Shown: positions 1-6,391 of the stretch, one piece after another
Layout: each line of letters starts with the position of its first letter
Numbering within the stretch: position 1 is the first letter of the stretch
Assembly: GCA_018238545.1 (NCBI GenBank)
Contig: JABCTC010000022.1
Coordinates: 1-62,685, forward strand
Reading direction: 5' to 3'
DNA length: 62,685 nt
From: Candidatus Heimdallarchaeota archaeon
Lineage (GTDB): Archaea > Asgardarchaeota > Heimdallarchaeia > Heimdallarchaeales > Heimdallarchaeaceae
The notes under the pieces: generated by a model
The model's database searches: none
What the model saw: only the letters and a program-made list of their open reading frames with translations
Told to the model about the DNA's origin: nothing
Position numbers and translations under genes: made by a program

Positions 1-228
1 ATATTTATGGTTCGCAAGTGTTTGAACACTTGTCCCTCAGTTAATAAAGTTTGAACCATACAGCACGATGCGCAATGGCAGGAATGTTGTCGGAGTAAAT
101 ACACACTCACTTCATTCCTTCCCCAATCATGATCTTCATGATTCTTCCCCTCAACGCACGTGAGGGGACCCACTTAAACGACGGTTAGACCACCTCTGGC
201 AAGTTTGACCAAGTTTCATAACGTGCGT
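1..228 (+). mobile_element. Right end of an IS607-family element (rest lies upstream of the window)
   Basis: Positions 151-228 match 3304-3381, which is fused to an IS607 tnpA fragment. Tandem CAAGTTT motifs at 200-216. The sequence abuts and truncates the downstream ORF. Confidence 0.75.
15..228 (+). ncRNA. Candidate TnpB omegaRNA (reRNA) scaffold
   Basis: Stems 15-21/26-32, 80-86/113-119, 93-96/105-108, 125-132/136-143 and 146-153/161-168. The loop ACGCACG (154-160) is complementary to terminal CGTGCGT (222-228), forming a pseudoknot with a compensatory change in the second copy. Confidence 0.6.
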
Positions 229-2524
229 GCTAAGTACATTGGATCTAGCAACAACAACCACTAATAATGTTCTACAAAATGTATCATTACCAGTACCTGT
301 GGGACCTATAATTGAGCATCCTATATTGGATAATATTCAATGGAATTCTGTTCCTACTATTAGAAATTATACTGATATACAGTTGACTGGAACTATTTTG
401 TTAGAAACTTCAGTTGTTAGTGCAGATCCAGGAATTGACTTAGTGAGTACAATTGATAACAACAGACTTATCGCTTTTAATTTCTTTCCAAATATGGAGT
501 TTAACAGCGAATTAATTGAATGGCCTTATTTCAATTATATGCTTTATCTCACTATAATGTCAACTGTTGACGAACCAGTTTTAACATACGCAAAATGGGA
601 CTACTCTCCTGTTCCCCATACCCTTGATACTATCTTGTTAGGTGTTTCAGTTCTGGTTACAGCTGTTATAACAATAGTTGGCTTTATTTTTGTTAGAAAA
701 TATTCAAAGAGGAATCCTGTAAAAGCTGAAGATCTGGAAGGTGTAAGCAAAGAAGTTGAAAAAGAAAATCAATGGGAAGAAGTTGGTATGCATCGTCAAC
801 TTGGTGGTTTTCTTATCCAATTATTTATTGGGCTTCTTGTTATTTTGCCTAATGTTGTCATGTCTGCTTTGGTTTTTCCACTTATAATTCTACCAAGCCC
901 ACAAGCTGCAGGTTTTTATGATTATACAATTAAATTCTTCGAAGCTCTTTGGTTATTCTTTGATTTGGGGACATCAGTAGTATTAGTGAAATTCTTCAGT
1001 GCTCATAGAGTGAAGAAACCCCAAAAAGCAATAAAATATGTCCAATTATTTATTTGGTACCAAATGTTATCAGGAGTAACTCAATTGTTCCTAATTTCCT
1101 TTATTGGTTCAATGGTGTTTCCACATACATTTCTTGCTCATATGTCATGGATTTTTGTTACTCACGCATTCTTCCAATGGCCGGCTTTCTTCCTGGTGTT
1201 TATGTATCTATTCCAAGCTATGAATAGAATTGATCTTCAACAGATTCTTAATCTGTTACTTTATGCAGTTTTCAATATCACGATTCAATATCTTGTGATT
1301 GTGCTCTTCAGATTTACTCTGGGCAAAAATCCTGTTTTTGGAGATGGGTTAGCTGGGGCAATAGGTTATAGCGTTGGTTTCTATGTGATTCAACTCTGCT
1401 CATTTTTGGTTGGTTTACTATTCTTCAAGAGACTTGGATTCTCATTGAAAACCATCTTTCGAATAGATTTCACGTGGACAGATATAAAAGAAGCATTCAA
1501 GTTTGGTATTAAATGGATGGGTGGAAAGATATTGCCTCCTCTCGGGTGGTTCGTACAATTGTATCTTCTCTCATTGTTCTTACCTAACTATACTCAGCAA
1601 CAGGGTTACTTCTCATTAGCCTGGAATTTTGCTACTATAGTGTTGTTGGTTGCACTTTTCGCAGAATCTTTACTCCCAGCTATATCTGAATCATACCATG
1701 CAAAGAAAAAAGCGCTCACTAGATATTATACTATGAGTTCTATAAAATGGAGTTCATATTTCGACTGGTTCTTAGTTGCAGCTCTAATTCCTATTGGTTG
1801 GCGATTCATAATTGGAGGAGCAGGTGCGGAATGGGCAGCGGCAACACCATTGATCGTATGGTTCCTTATCTTCCATGCAATAGGTTATTTCTCATGGCTA
1901 GGTGATTGGATGTTTGCAGGATCAGATCGTCCGGGTTGGGCTGCAATAAGCTGGATAATTGAACAAGTGATCAGAATAGGGTTGCTATTCGTTTTCATAC
2001 CTCTGTATGGATGGTTCAGCATAACCTTTGGTTCCCCAATGGTTGCGATAATGTTCGCGTATTTCCCCGCTTTAATTATTAAGAATATCTTCATGTGGTG
2101 GGGTATAAGACGTGATGATTATTTCAAATTCAAATGGAAAGATTTAGCGTGGCAAGGTTTTGTTGCTCCTTTAGGTGCTGCTGTGGTGATTTGGGGTATT
2201 CTGGAAGGATTGTTTTCATTAATTTGGCAAGGAGAAATCATAACTTCTGTACTTATCCTTCTCATTGGTACTCTTGGTGGTATGTACATTTTCGCATTCT
2301 TTGCTAGTTTGTTTGGTACTTTTGATGACAATACCTTAGAAGAGTTTAAACGCGCAACAGAGATGGCTAAAGGGTTGAAATTTATGGCAAAACCTCTTTA
2401 TCTTGTATCAAAATGGGGCGCAAAAATATCTCCATTACATAATAAATTCCCCATGACTATTTTTGATGAGGCTCAAGCTGAAGCCAAGCAACTTACAGAA
2501 GAGAAAACAAAACTAATGATATAA
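227..2524 (+). CDS. MOP-superfamily (MurJ/Wzx-like) flippase with N-terminal extracytoplasmic domain; 5'-truncated by the IS insertion
   Basis: About 14 hydrophobic segments after a soluble N-terminal part, with DLGT and LLPAISESY motifs typical of polysaccharide flippases. The GTG start lies inside the IS end, with an in-frame TGA at 206-208 and no native start. Confidence 0.7.
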   Translation: MLSTLDLATTTTNNVLQNVSLPVPVGPIIEHPILDNIQWNSVPTIRNYTDIQLTGTILLETSVVSADPGIDLVSTIDNNRLIAFNFFPNMEFNSELIEWPYFNYMLYLTIMSTVDEPVLTYAKWDYSPVPHTLDTILLGVSVLVTAVITIVGFIFVRKYSKRNPVKAEDLEGVSKEVEKENQWEEVGMHRQLGGFLIQLFIGLLVILPNVVMSALVFPLIILPSPQAAGFYDYTIKFFEALWLFFDLGTSVVLVKFFSAHRVKKPQKAIKYVQLFIWYQMLSGVTQLFLISFIGSMVFPHTFLAHMSWIFVTHAFFQWPAFFLVFMYLFQAMNRIDLQQILNLLLYAVFNITIQYLVIVLFRFTLGKNPVFGDGLAGAIGYSVGFYVIQLCSFLVGLLFFKRLGFSLKTIFRIDFTWTDIKEAFKFGIKWMGGKILPPLGWFVQLYLLSLFLPNYTQQQGYFSLAWNFATIVLLVALFAESLLPAISESYHAKKKALTRYYTMSSIKWSSYFDWFLVAALIPIGWRFIIGGAGAEWAAATPLIVWFLIFHAIGYFSWLGDWMFAGSDRPGWAAISWIIEQVIRIGLLFVFIPLYGWFSITFGSPMVAIMFAYFPALIIKNIFMWWGIRRDDYFKFKWKDLAWQGFVAPLGAAVVIWGILEGLFSLIWQGEIITSVLILLIGTLGGMYIFAFFASLFGTFDDNTLEEFKRATEMAKGLKFMAKPLYLVSKWGAKISPLHNKFPMTIFDEAQAEAKQLTEEKTKLMI

Positions 2525-2544
2525 TTTTCTCTTTTCTTTTCTTT

Positions 2545-3012
2545 TTATTTTCTTGTTTTTAAAGCAGATTGTATTGTTCGTTTCACCCATTCTTCTGCTT
2601 CAGAATCTTTAAGAATTTTTTCGCAATATTCCCAATGTTCTCCAGCAATCAGCCCCATTAGAGATATCTTCTTGAATTTTCTTGGTTTATTGGGTGTTGA
2701 AGTAAACATAGAAAGAAGTTTAGCGGATTTCTTCTTCAGCATCATTAAGTCCATTGTATTATCGAGTGGGATTTCATCATCTTGAAGCGTTATTGCTACA
2801 TCATAACTAGAAGTATTGATTGTAGCAAATTTTGTTAAAGCTAAGAGCGAGTAGTTTCTTATCCAATCAATTCTTGAAGATGTTAAAGCATGATTGTATA
2901 ATGAAGCTAAACATCCATCCTTGATTAGAGTCTTAAGCGCAGACCTTCTTCTTCCATCACCTAAAGAAGGCGTTGAAATGATTATATCGAATTTACTACA
3001 ATCCATTAACAT
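2545..3012 (-). CDS. Hypothetical protein, possibly HEAT-like helical
   Basis: 155-aa ORF with a TTTATT box ~25 nt upstream. Segments RRSALKTL, RNYSLLAL and EWVKRTIQSAL resemble HEAT repeats. Confidence 0.55.
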   Translation of the reverse strand: MLMDCSKFDIIISTPSLGDGRRRSALKTLIKDGCLASLYNHALTSSRIDWIRNYSLLALTKFATINTSSYDVAITLQDDEIPLDNTMDLMMLKKKSAKLLSMFTSTPNKPRKFKKISLMGLIAGEHWEYCEKILKDSEAEEWVKRTIQSALKTRK

Positions 3013-3029
3013 ACAATATTCTTTCTTTC

Positions 3030-3381
3030 AAATAAACTTTAGCAAACTGTGGACAACTGCTGAAGAAAATAGTGCTCAATCTTGCCAAAAGAAGTAAAAG
3101 AATTTCTGAAGATTCAACAGAAGTAGAACTATGTTAGTAAGAATTGGCATAACAGCATCCATACAAGGAGTATCTGCTAGCACTATGAGAAGGTGGGAGA
3201 GGGAAGAGAAAATACTCCCTTATAAGAGGACAAGAGGAGGGCACAGGAGATACAAACTCTCCCAGATGATAGGAGAAGAAGAACAGAAGGAGGAGAACGA
3301 CAATCAACACACGTGAGGGGACCCATTTAAACGACGGTTAGCCGCCTTCTGGCAAGTTTAACCAAGTTTCATAACGTGTGT
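3030..3381 (+). mobile_element. Internally deleted, non-autonomous IS607 derivative (left end + 5' tnpA + last ~78 bp of right end)
   Basis: The truncated TnpA HTH is joined directly to a copy of the 151-228 end. Left-end motifs AAACT (3034, 3044) and CTTGCCAAAAG (~3081) are inverted counterparts of right-end CAAGTTT/CTTCTGGCAAG. Left boundary is approximate. Confidence 0.75.
3131..3316 (+). pseudogene. tnpA: IS607 serine transposase, N-terminal MerR-like HTH only
   Basis: GVSASTMRRWEREEKI...RTRGGHRRY is the IS607 TnpA N-terminal signature. The catalytic YARVS domain is missing and the stop codon lies in the right-end sequence. Confidence 0.85.
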
Positions 3382-3424
3382 TACGTGAGAAAATTTTTTA
3401 ACTCACATGCTCACAAAAGTTTCC

Positions 3425-3943
3425 ATGGACTCTGTTACTCATGGAAGTATATCTGTACTAATTGGTTTTATATTCATTCAATTTTACGATGTCCCACTTT
3501 GGTTGCTTCTAATTGTAATGTTTGTTTTCGGAGTTCTTGTAGACTATGACCATGTTTTCTATTATAAGAGGAAGCATCCCGAGATTAAATTATGGAACCT
3601 TCCTCAACTGATTAAACTTTATTTTAAAACAGTAGATGAAAGAGATGAGTTCATTTATCATACTTGGTTGCATGAACCATTTGGTGTTCTAGTAGTCTGC
3701 GGAGTCAGCTCTCTCTTCTTTTGGTTGATTAATATTCCTGAATTAGCTATTTTGGCGAGTAGTTGTTATGTTGCACATTATCTTGTCGACTTAATATCAG
3801 GAAAAATGAAACCTTTAGCTCCTTTCTCAAATAAAGTTACAATCGACCTAAAAATTCTACCTGCAAATGCTTTCACTATTACTGGAATTGCTTTAGGCAC
3901 ATTTCTTATTGCACTTGTTATCTTTATTGCATTTAAACCTTAA
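3425..3943 (+). CDS. Membrane-bound metal-dependent hydrolase (YdjM-like)
   Basis: MDxxTH start, LVDYDH, HTWLHE and HYLVD motifs, 4-5 TM segments. The start at 3425 fits the TATA box at ~3393. Confidence 0.75.
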   Translation: MDSVTHGSISVLIGFIFIQFYDVPLWLLLIVMFVFGVLVDYDHVFYYKRKHPEIKLWNLPQLIKLYFKTVDERDEFIYHTWLHEPFGVLVVCGVSSLFFWLINIPELAILASSCYVAHYLVDLISGKMKPLAPFSNKVTIDLKILPANAFTITGIALGTFLIALVIFIAFKP

Positions 3944-3994
3944 CAGAATCAACTCCTCGATAGATTTTTAATTTCTTGATAGACTGTACACCTA

Positions 3995-6391
3995 ATGTCT
4001 AATGAGTTAATAGGAAAAGTACCGTTTTGGATGGTTAAATTCGCTTTGAATAATGTCATCAGAAAGAAAATGATGCAAAATAATGAAGTAGTGCTACCAG
4101 AAGACGAGTCTAATTGGAAAAAAATGGGTAAACTATCTTCTAGTAAAGTTAGAAAATTTGATTTTCAAGCAGCGTTAGGCGATGGGGCATTTCAAATAAA
4201 ATCTATTGCTAATGGGGTTCTAAACATCCGAATCTCTAAACAGCTATCCAATATCCCGCAAACTGATGCTGTAATTCTAGACAATAAATCACCACCAGCG
4301 TTGGTTGTGAAGAAAGAGGACGAAAAAACAATAATTACTCAAGAATCTGGTCCAACTGTGTTTATTGTTGCTACAATAGACAAAGAAGCTGGTCAGATCA
4401 CTTTTGAAGATGGGTTTGGATTTAAAATTTGTACAGAGGAATTCCCAAGTTATCACGAGGAAGATTGGTACAAAATCGAAAAATTACCTGGTGTAGCTTG
4501 CGAAAATTATTATGGTTTTGGTGAGAAGGGTGGTCCTTTGAACAAAAAAGGTGAAACTATCTCATTCTGGAACACAGATTCTTTTGCCTATAGTAACGAT
4601 GATTCAAAATTGTATCAATCCCAGCCTATCCAGATAGTTGTTCGATCTAATGGTTTCTGCTATGCTGTTGTTTATGATAACCCTAATCGAAGTCAAATTG
4701 AAATTGGTGACGATGATGATTGTTCAACAAAATATTATGTTAATGGTGGTGGTATAAATTACTATATTATTGTTGGACCTACAGTGTCCAAGGTATTTAG
4801 AAAACTAGCCGATTTGCTCGGAAGAGCTCCTCTCCCACCTATTTCAGCTCTTGGACATCATCAAAGTCGGTGGTCTTATTATCCTGAATCAGAAGTAAGG
4901 GCTTTAGCTTCAGAATTCAGAAATAGGAAAATTCCCTGTGATTATATTCACTTAGACATTGACTATATGGATGAATATCGAATATTTACTTGGAATAAGG
5001 AACATTTCCCAAATCCAAAGAAATTGTCGGATGATCTTTTTGAGCAAGGTTTTCGTCTGATGGCAATGATGGATCCAGGAGTCAAAGTAGATCCAAACTA
5101 TAAAATTTACAAAGAAGGAATCAAAGGAAAGCATTTCTGCCTAAATCCTGATGATTCGGTATATACTGGTCCTGTATGGCCTGGCGATTGCCATTTTCCT
5201 GACTTTACTCAAGAAAAAACACGTGGATGGTTCGGTAATCACTTTAAAGCATTAACTAAAGCAGGAGTAAGAGGTTTTTGGATTGACATGAATGATCCAT
5301 CGGTTTTCAACGATAAAGGAACAATAGATGACGATATTATACATCCTGGTGAAGGAGAACCTCGTTTACATAAAGAAGTACATAATGAATATGCACATTT
5401 AATGGCTAAAGCAACCTATGAGGGTTTACAAAAACTTCTACCAAATAACAGAATTTACATCAATTCTAGGTCAGCATATTTAGGGACTCATAGATATGCA
5501 GGAACATGGACAGGAGACAATGTTGCAAGTTGGAGACATTTGCAACTATCTATACCCATGATGTTGAATATGGCTGTTTCTGGACAAGTAATGATTGGTC
5601 CTGATATTGGAGGTTTTGCTGGAAAACCAGGTGCTGAACTTCTTATCCGTTGGTATCAAGCTGGCTGTTTATACCCCTATTTCAGAAATCACACAATTAA
5701 CAAAAAGTGCTCCCAAGAACCATGGGCTCTTGGAAGAAAAGCAGAAAAAATTATCAGACGGACTATCCAGTTAAGATATTCTCTAATGGTTTATATCTAT
5801 AATAGCATAAGACAAACTTGTTTGACTGGTATTCCAGCTTTCCGACCATTGTGGGTAGATAATTCAAAGGATCCAATGGCACATATTGCGGAATGGGCAG
5901 AAACTGAATATTTGTTTGGGGATAAAATGCTTTTAGCTCCTGTTCTAAAGAAAGGTAGAAGGAAAAGAGAAGTTTATCTTCCCCAAGGAAAGTGGTATAG
6001 TTTCTGCGGAAAACTTCTTTTTGATGGTGGAAAAGTGCATGAAATTGATGTACCTTTAGATGTAGTGCCGCTATTTGTCAAAGAAGGTTCTATTATACCC
6101 TATATTACAGAACCTATTCAACATACAGGAGAGATTTACAAATCAAAAATTTCTCTTAGAGTATATCCAAAAGATTCGGAAGCTGAAGGAGAAATCTATC
6201 TTGATGATGGAGACTCACTCGAATTTAATAATGGTGATTATGAAATTGTGAAAATTCAAGCAGAGGAAAAAGCTGGAGAAACATGGTATTTCAATATTAA
6301 CAGAGAAGGGAAAAAGAAGAAATATATTGAAATTGGCGAAATAACAATAATGGGTGAAGAAAAGCTAAATTATTTGGTATTTGAGAAATAA
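3995..6391 (+). CDS. GH31 alpha-glucosidase
   Basis: YGFGEK, HLDIDYMD, WIDMNDP (nucleophile), WTGDN (acid/base), GPDIGGF and YFRNH motifs. Confidence 0.95.
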   Translation: MSNELIGKVPFWMVKFALNNVIRKKMMQNNEVVLPEDESNWKKMGKLSSSKVRKFDFQAALGDGAFQIKSIANGVLNIRISKQLSNIPQTDAVILDNKSPPALVVKKEDEKTIITQESGPTVFIVATIDKEAGQITFEDGFGFKICTEEFPSYHEEDWYKIEKLPGVACENYYGFGEKGGPLNKKGETISFWNTDSFAYSNDDSKLYQSQPIQIVVRSNGFCYAVVYDNPNRSQIEIGDDDDCSTKYYVNGGGINYYIIVGPTVSKVFRKLADLLGRAPLPPISALGHHQSRWSYYPESEVRALASEFRNRKIPCDYIHLDIDYMDEYRIFTWNKEHFPNPKKLSDDLFEQGFRLMAMMDPGVKVDPNYKIYKEGIKGKHFCLNPDDSVYTGPVWPGDCHFPDFTQEKTRGWFGNHFKALTKAGVRGFWIDMNDPSVFNDKGTIDDDIIHPGEGEPRLHKEVHNEYAHLMAKATYEGLQKLLPNNRIYINSRSAYLGTHRYAGTWTGDNVASWRHLQLSIPMMLNMAVSGQVMIGPDIGGFAGKPGAELLIRWYQAGCLYPYFRNHTINKKCSQEPWALGRKAEKIIRRTIQLRYSLMVYIYNSIRQTCLTGIPAFRPLWVDNSKDPMAHIAEWAETEYLFGDKMLLAPVLKKGRRKREVYLPQGKWYSFCGKLLFDGGKVHEIDVPLDVVPLFVKEGSIIPYITEPIQHTGEIYKSKISLRVYPKDSEAEGEIYLDDGDSLEFNNGDYEIVKIQAEEKAGETWYFNINREGKKKKYIEIGEITIMGEEKLNYLVFEK

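Follow-up and report, generated by a model that had tools for sequence, protein, structure and literature searches.

A gene-less IS607-derived mini-element of Heimdallarchaeota that probably retains a guide-RNA scaffold with a terminal pseudoknot

The window analyzed here is a 62,685-nt stretch of DNA, contig C51 of a 3.63-Mb, 34% GC Heimdallarchaeota assembly (G000), and it starts inside a repeat. We found that this repeat, at window positions 1-228, is probably the right part of a non-autonomous mini-transposon that derives from a Heimdallarchaeota IS607-type element and retains its guide-RNA scaffold. The family membership of the repeat, its boundaries, its target motif, its base-paired structure and the strand of that structure are established here. 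The central feature is a well-supported 6-bp pseudoknot, recognized by comparison of related right ends, which joins the loop of a hairpin (stem-loop 1) to the last bases of the element. An earlier note, written from the letters of the window, had proposed an archaeal IS607 omegaRNA at this place.

The extent of the repeat was determined from copies with an assembled left side. Similarity reaches just 172-175 nt beyond window position 1, and the whole unit is approximately 403 nt long, with full copies at C21:11427-11829(-) and C43:96165-96566(-). The full copies inspected hold no gene-like open reading frame (ORF) and are located between ordinary genes. Being short, multi-copy and free of ORFs, with ends that match those of autonomous elements, the unit is a miniature inverted-repeat transposable element (MITE). 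At least 12 whole or partial copies are present in G000, many of them at contig ends, and 10 of 23 congeneric genomes harbor the MITE, with identity over positions 1-146 down to 68%. With sensitive search settings, its first ~45 nt (the left end) match full IS607 elements and so do its last 125-150 nt (from window 79, 100 or 107 to 228, 79-85% identity); for example, MITE positions 254-403 align with the 3' end of tnpB at L089:3351-3496 with 79% identity. The MITE has thus lost both genes and keeps the left end, a structured 5' module, the tnpB 3' tail and a right-end scaffold of ~82 nt. The last ~86 nt alone were found again in about 20 further copies in G000, and the conserved right-end block of 82-86 nt is represented by 27 copies in G000 and 52 loci in other assemblies. 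In all copies compared, conservation of the right end stops exactly at 228.

The earlier note placed the cognate nuclease outside the window. Read as a gene just upstream, this claim had to be given up, as the short remainder of the repeat contains no ORF. Since the mini-element is gene-less and the repeat ends so close to the window start, any nuclease would act in trans. A truncated full element at the window start was also considered and dropped: only hut genes and unrelated ORFs lie beside two internal full MITE copies. Several other contigs of G000 start or end in the MITE or in an IS607 right end (C37, C96, C42, C123, C125, C9, C56, C115, C74, C11, C50, C82, C33, C16 and C124). This repeat family is a main cause of assembly breaks in G000, and the copy numbers are therefore lower bounds.

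The hairpin at 146-168 pointed out in the earlier note, with a loop ACGCACG (154-160) that is the reverse complement of the last bases of the repeat, CGTGCGT (222-228), can be read directly in the sequence. A single 7-nt complementarity in 228 nt is close to chance level (roughly 1-2 expected by our own estimate) and the second copy in the window, described below, is not independent, so that significance has to come from further copies. We compared 58 right ends drawn from the 27 G000 ends and 52 from other Heimdallarchaeota assemblies reached via the TnpB protein; related sequences among them are not independent samples. Changes on both sides were found at 4 of the 6 pairs 155-160/222-227. 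The C-G pair 155-227 becomes U-A in 5 sequences and A-U in 1, the G-C pair 156-226 becomes A-U in 10, and single sequences carry U-A for A-U at 158-224 and A-U for G-C at 160-222. None of 500 shuffles reached the observed score, and partners slid along the sequence were only 23-46% paired. The covariation claimed in the earlier note therefore stands for these positions and fails for pair 154-228, which is unpaired in 26 of the 58 right ends and leaves a helix of 6 bp. Departures from Watson-Crick pairing within the helix comprise 8 G.U or U.G cells and 3 unpaired cells, one of which is A.C. Common wobbles and rare A.C on the tnpB-sense strand fit an RNA in the tnpB sense.

More distant right ends, at loci of TnpB relatives with 42-49% identity, carry the same arrangement with other letters. 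In L103, the loop and tail read ACGCATG/CATGCGT, adding a fifth covarying pair. Similarly, CGCATAC pairs with GTATGCG in L116 and with GTAT(T)GCG in L115, L117 and L126, CGCATGC pairs with GCAT(T)GCG in L118 and L119, and CACATAC pairs with GTATGTG in L128. A clear pseudoknot was not found in the subfamily L108/L111/L114. The minimum-free-energy fold offers the tail a nested partner, GCACG at 63-67 with 222-226; we judged it less likely, as 63-67 lies in a segment specific to the MITE and G67 is not conserved.

The pseudoknot is set in a strongly folded sequence. For 1-228, the + strand reaches a folding energy of -69.1 kcal/mol (z = -4.75), which none of 200 shuffles equaled, vs z = -2.82 for the - strand. 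The predicted hairpins (6-60 with an inner one at 15-32, 80-119, 125-143, 147-167 and 176-216; Table 1) bear out the earlier count of at least four. Within the scaffold, stem-loop 1 has 97.8% of cells paired in the 58 right ends, and the helix 183-189/204-210 of the long stem-loop is 97% paired with three covarying pairs (2-3 pairs changed on both sides across alignments). The apical CTGGCAAG (196-203) of this long stem-loop is an inverted copy of the left-end motif CTTGCCAG, a putative TnpA site. Upstream of the scaffold, an alignment of 15 MITE copies was used. Both-side changes affect two pairs of the outer helix 6-13/53-60 and three pairs of the hairpin 15-21/26-32. Hairpin 80-119 shows no compensatory change with 87% of cells paired, and hairpin 125-143 is 99% paired with two G.U cells, an invariance that leaves no covariation possible. 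Positions 147-228 are almost unchanged among the same 15 copies. With RNAalifold, the last 200 nt of 56 full elements yielded no supported structure on the 5' side of stem-loop 1, and the pairing it drew between the tail and a U.G-rich coding stretch showed no covariation.

The autonomous relatives identify the family. Right-end copies lie 35-40 nt past matches to a TnpB zinc ribbon and, in C71 and C82, also near resolvase matches. The C71 element encodes a 201-aa TnpA (MerR + Resolvase) and a 647-aa ORF, and tnpB lies downstream of tnpA in both C71 and C82; another tnpA, at L053:2297-2902(-), scores 3.9e-21 for Resolvase and 1.6e-9 for MerR. The full TnpB-like protein matches the Pfam TNB domain at 22.6-24.6 bits, below the 26.3-bit cut-off. 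Its AlphaFold model, made for the C71 protein (predicted local distance difference test, 85.9), finds its best fold matches in Cas12f, ISFba1 TnpB (8iaz, rank 14) and ISDra2 TnpB (8h1j). The attribution to an archaeal IS607 family is thus upheld, with full copies carrying a MerR+resolvase TnpA and a protein of TnpB/Cas12f fold, and the TnpB-like ORF that the earlier note wished to see in full-length copies is there. Its suggested link to Fanzor2 found no such backing: in the fold search, Cas12f and bacterial TnpBs came before Fanzor2, which ranked 33. About 135 relatives, each ~645 aa long, make up the protein family; Heimdallarchaeota account for nearly all of them and Thorarchaeota for a few. 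Two tnpA copies contain in-frame stops (C82:20239-20625, TAG+TAA; C72:747-1133, TGA) and those of C71 and C102 are intact, so that autonomous and decayed copies coexist.

The active site of this family is unusual. D433 and E531 are invariant, and the motif NTHxNAAxNI puts His618 at the RuvC-III Asp position of other TnpBs in nearly all members. We had also tried the variable residue of NTHxNAA as the RuvC-III position, and rejected it because alignment with the NADxN motif leads to His618. Given this substitution, the RNA might be made and bound by a TnpB that does not cut, acting in DNA binding only, for example as a repressor, a target mark or a decoy that titrates TnpB. Nuclease-dead TnpB derivatives are indeed known as RNA-guided repressors (10.1101/2023.11.30.569447). 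We nonetheless regard a non-cutting system as unlikely, since two invariant acidic residues together with a conserved histidine speak for a rearranged rather than a decayed site and clades with His for the RuvC-III Asp have been mentioned and are thought to be active (PMC10691335). Furthermore, the elements are multi-copy, TnpA-linked and have variable flanks, whereas domesticated repressors are single-copy with fixed guides.

The right boundary could be examined at a second copy, an internally deleted IS607 element located further into the window (Table 1). Its left end is followed by 61 codons from the start of tnpA (ORF 3131-3316, MerR helix-turn-helix, E = 1e-8), and a deletion joins these to the final 78 nt of the right end (3304-3381); the copy is 92% identical to C82:20634-20899. 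The 5' arm of stem-loop 1 has been deleted (ACAATCA vs CCCCTCA), therefore only the loop and tail sequences survive. The earlier note took this copy as evidence of covariation. The matching pair it described, ACACACG (3307-3313) with CGTGTGT (3375-3381), is present, but the A/T pair is common to a subfamily (C71, C82, C41, C114 and C50) and was inherited from it, and does not constitute independent covariation. Empty sites of copy 2 are found in two sister genomes (G010:C21 and G021:C237) and join ..AGCAAACTGT directly to TACGTGAG.., and the occupied site reads ..AAACTGT-GGACAAC...ACGTGTGT-TACGTGAG... ACTGT thus occurs once in the empty sites, the occupied site has the form ..ACTGT-element-..TGTGT, and the 3-nt overlap comes with no target duplication. 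Insertion is therefore scarless, as expected for a serine recombinase.

The consensus of 43 left junctions is A40 C43 Y42 G41 T43, and the sequence is random further out. AC belongs to the target, because the empty site of copy 2 shows it. Of the 21 elements for which both ends could be compared, 18 have the same pyrimidine at the left junction and at the right end, and all eight TGT right ends accompany ACTGT. Since a base taken from the target would not stay with the element when it transposes, the crossover core most likely includes the pyrimidine and is probably YG (window 226-227), with T228 as a fixed flanking nucleotide. With a single insertion for which the empty site is available, the exact dinucleotide (YG or GT) is something we infer. 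A core at 226-227 would be part of the pseudoknot's 3' strand. At two positions the right end (TGYGT) and the target (ACYGT) differ, and by analogy with known systems ACYGT is a candidate transposon-adjacent motif (TAM). The proposed guide start immediately after 228 fits the boundary at which similarity among copies ends, and a guide beginning at 229 agrees with ISXfa1, in which the fixed flanking nucleotide is assigned to the scaffold (PMC10711439). The terminal pseudoknot beside this predicted guide, as described in the earlier note, is likewise supported: its pairs covary in the 58 sequences, and the last ~82 nt are the conserved right end.

IS607 ends bind several TnpA dimers. The right end might accordingly be only a DNA site for the serine recombinase, its complementarity being an inverted repeat without a functional RNA, and two features lend themselves to this view: the probable crossover dinucleotide shares bases with the pseudoknot's 3' strand, and a left-end motif, probably a TnpA site, recurs inverted in the right end. 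However, CGTGCG/CGCACG was not found in the left ends. The changes are complementary and not identical, with G.U exceeding A.C intermediates 8 to 1 on the tnpB-sense strand, and distant relatives pair with unrelated sequences, one of them bulged. The same arrangement has also been functionally proven as RNA in ISXfa1 (PMC10711439). A pure DNA site is, in our view, quite improbable.

Further observations concern the part of the MITE that lies upstream of the scaffold. In 44 tnpB genes, normalized codon diversity at synonymous sites is ~0.7 along the gene, with lower values of 0.19-0.45 for codons ~240-345 and 0.32 for the 3' end. The suppressed stretch in the middle of tnpB spans ~300 nt (for example L053 about 1210-1530, - strand; minimum 0.19), and points to an overlapping function at the nucleotide level. 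Within it lies GTTTTCACACTCTTTGAYCA..CATGCAGAGTGTCCCTCAGTTA, which hardly varies and consists of a hairpin and then CCCTCAGTTA, an arrangement also seen at window 14-43. The hairpin with CCCTCAGTTA, and CGAAAACTC, are common to the MITE 5' module and tnpB codons ~270-297. When the MITE middle was compared with tnpB genes by nhmmer, the best match (E = 0.24) was not significant alone, with matches clustering at codons ~270-308, and local alignment scores were marginally above those of shuffles. What links the MITE to mid-tnpB is thus a 13-mer and a hairpin that both have, together with the dip at synonymous sites. On these sequence comparisons, the MITE appears to retain just the tnpB segments under nucleotide-level constraint. 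Upstream of the window, diverged MITE copies keep a TATA-like block (TTTATATA; longer form TTTTTCTACGAGTTTATATAGGAAAGT), which may be an archaeal TATA-type promoter, and a further covarying hairpin (TGGCGA/TCGCCA vs AGGTGA/TCACCT).

These observations allow a tentative proposal, possible but far from secure. The guide RNA would be two-part, made of the right-end scaffold and a structured mid-tnpB module ~1 kb upstream, and the MITE would be a minimal guide-RNA gene that fuses both behind its own promoter and uses the His-variant TnpB in trans. With a pseudoknot strand that holds the crossover core, target choice, TAM and RNA fold would have to change together (CG, TG and CA variants).

One right end of G000, at C43:689-774, has stem-loop 1 exactly inverted (CCCCTCA-CGTGCGT-TGAGGGG), and its loop equals the tail instead of its complement. 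It is a natural pseudoknot-broken variant, and its contig begins just upstream. It is very unlikely that the window copy is an inert relic moved by TnpA via its ends, with RNA-like features as inherited baggage, although copy 2 is a dead deletion derivative without the 5' arm of stem-loop 1 and this variant is broken as well, for MITEs only 68-82% identical over 1-146 keep 147-228 nearly unchanged, their 5' module is maintained through compensatory changes, and the segments kept are precisely the ones whose synonymous sites are frozen in tnpB.

Several points weigh against a retained guide-RNA scaffold. Among the 15 MITE copies the pseudoknot is almost invariant, with one compensatory change, so that selection on the RNA within the MITE lineage is not demonstrated. 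In full elements, stem-loop 1 overlaps the final tnpB codons (..FPSTHVR), and part of its conservation could be at the protein level. Arguments from conservation are confounded, as the right end must be conserved for the recombinase as well. No Rfam family of the expected kind matched, including omegaRNA-type families (RAGATH-18 and the IS605-orfB motifs): a cmscan search of positions 1-4000 with E up to 10 returned chance matches elsewhere and none in 1-260 or 3040-3400. With His618 in place of the RuvC-III Asp, nuclease activity of the protein is uncertain. Finally, we infer that the MITE is transcribed, that its RNA is bound in trans, that cleavage occurs and that the element is retained.

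The most likely mechanism would run as follows. A + strand transcript of the MITE, possibly started at the conserved TATA-like block that precedes the window, would cross the right end into host DNA, yielding a scaffold followed by a guide from 229. TnpB from full copies elsewhere in the genome may then bind the scaffold. After excision by TnpA, the complex would recognize the scarless donor joint (ACYGT plus guide match), and cleavage followed by repair from a sister copy would restore the element at the donor site.

Right-end guide RNAs with a pseudoknot are established biology, and what we describe is an uncharacterized archaeal variant. The closest parallel is ISXfa1 (Yoon et al. 2023, PMC10711439), likewise a serine-recombinase transposon of the IS607 family with a right-end guide RNA. 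That RNA has three stem-loops and a pseudoknot from the loop of its stem-loop 1 to five bases beside the guide; the pseudoknot is required for activity and a fixed right-flank nucleotide is part of the scaffold. Here too, the apical loop of stem-loop 1 pairs with ~5-6 nt beside the guide and a fixed nucleotide follows the core. Unlike ISXfa1, whose scaffold has ~150 nt and three stem-loops, the present one measures ~82 nt with two stem-loops, and distant relatives have three. Instead of GG, the core is probably YG in an ACYGT target, and the protein has 645 aa with a RuvC-III His instead of ~400 aa; the host is an Asgard archaeon, and the system is known from sequence alone. In CboIStron (Zedaveinyte et al., 10.1101/2023.11.20.567912), the TAM equals the TnpA target, as predicted here, excision is scarless and leaves a donor joint, and the right-end bases resemble but differ from the TAM (TCGG/TGGG; TGYGT/ACYGT here). 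Unlike CboIStron, our element has no group I intron, the core and TAM differ, and use of the TAM would follow by analogy.

Gene-less IS200/IS605 elements that encode guide RNAs used in trans have been described (Meers et al., 10.1101/2023.03.14.532601). The MITE resembles these elements, which are like palindrome-associated transposable elements (PATE-like), in being gene-less with the scaffold kept, and TnpA and TnpB would come in trans. In contrast to them, it is of IS607 type (double-stranded, serine recombinase) and not of the Y1/single-stranded DNA type, and two additional features set it apart, the covarying 5' module and the conserved TATA-like block. The IS607-associated TnpB of ISFba1 (8iaz), which uses a RAGATH-18-derived RNA (PMC11061315), is among the best structural matches, but protein identity is ~13% and RAGATH-18 has no match in window positions 1-4000 (E up to 10). 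A literature search for TnpB with Heimdallarchaeota or Asgard found no description of this TnpB family. Its distinguishing features are the Asgard host, the enlarged His-variant protein, the ACYGT target with YG core, the compact scaffold, the second module and the MITE form. If functional, this would be an Asgard RNA-guided system that departs from studied TnpBs in protein size (645 aa), catalytic His, 5-nt ACYGT motif and scaffold compactness. The comparative data fix the scaffold, guide boundary and candidate TAM well enough for the design of a direct test. In addition, the MITE shows what survives loss of dispensable parts and thereby points to a second RNA module, absent from published TnpB systems, and the overlap of pseudoknot and crossover core would be a specific example of a transposase site and a guide-RNA fold that evolve in a coupled way.

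Table 1. Coordinates of the mini-element, its predicted RNA parts and the second copy in the window.
Feature	Position	Strand	Remark
Right 228 nt of ~403-nt gene-less IS607-derived mini-element (MITE)	1-228	+	Left ~175 nt missing; contig begins inside
5' RNA module: outer helix 6-13/53-60, hairpin 15-21/26-32, conserved single-stranded TCCCTCAGTTA 33-43	6-60	+	Covariation in 15 MITE copies
Predicted hairpin 80-86/113-119 and 92-96/105-109, from tnpB 3' coding end	80-119	+	Minimum-free-energy fold; weak comparative support
Hairpin AATCATGA/TCATGATT	125-143	+	Invariant in MITE copies, absent from full elements
Scaffold stem-loop 1, CCCCTCA 147-153/TGAGGGG 161-167, loop ACGCACG 154-160	147-167	+	Loop is source of pseudoknot 5' strand
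Pseudoknot 5' strand CGCACG	155-160	+	4/6 pairs compensatory
Long stem-loop, AAAC 176-179/GTTT 213-216 and GGTTAGA 183-189/TTTGACC 204-210	176-216	+	97-98% paired
Pseudoknot 3' strand CGTGCG 222-227, then nearly invariant T228	222-228	+	Includes probable crossover dinucleotide CG 226-227
Predicted guide segment, flanking host DNA GCTAAGTACATTGGATC...	229-248	+	Boundary at 228; arrangement by analogy with ISXfa1 and CboIStron
Copy 2, internally deleted IS607 element	3051-3381	+	Target motif ACTGT at 3046-3050

A few observations concern the neighborhood of the elements. In the window, an ORF at 227-2524 starts at the MITE boundary, and its product is a membrane protein of 765 aa whose residues 224-488 match a Polysacc_synt domain; the listed GTG start of this ORF overlaps the last bases of the MITE. 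At loci of distant TnpB relatives from three different genomes (L108:3440-3660, L111:3443-3640 and L114:3436-3640), (A/G)GAACGGAT directly follows the right end, and the same string is found ~80-110 nt downstream on the opposite strand in the apparent 3' half of a tRNA gene; ARAGORN called no tRNA at these three loci. In another distant subfamily (L115:1322-1398 and L117:1319-1395), the tnpB start is preceded at ~100 nt by a tRNA-Asn gene, and the right-end flank holds GGATTCGAAC, which resembles a tRNA T-arm.

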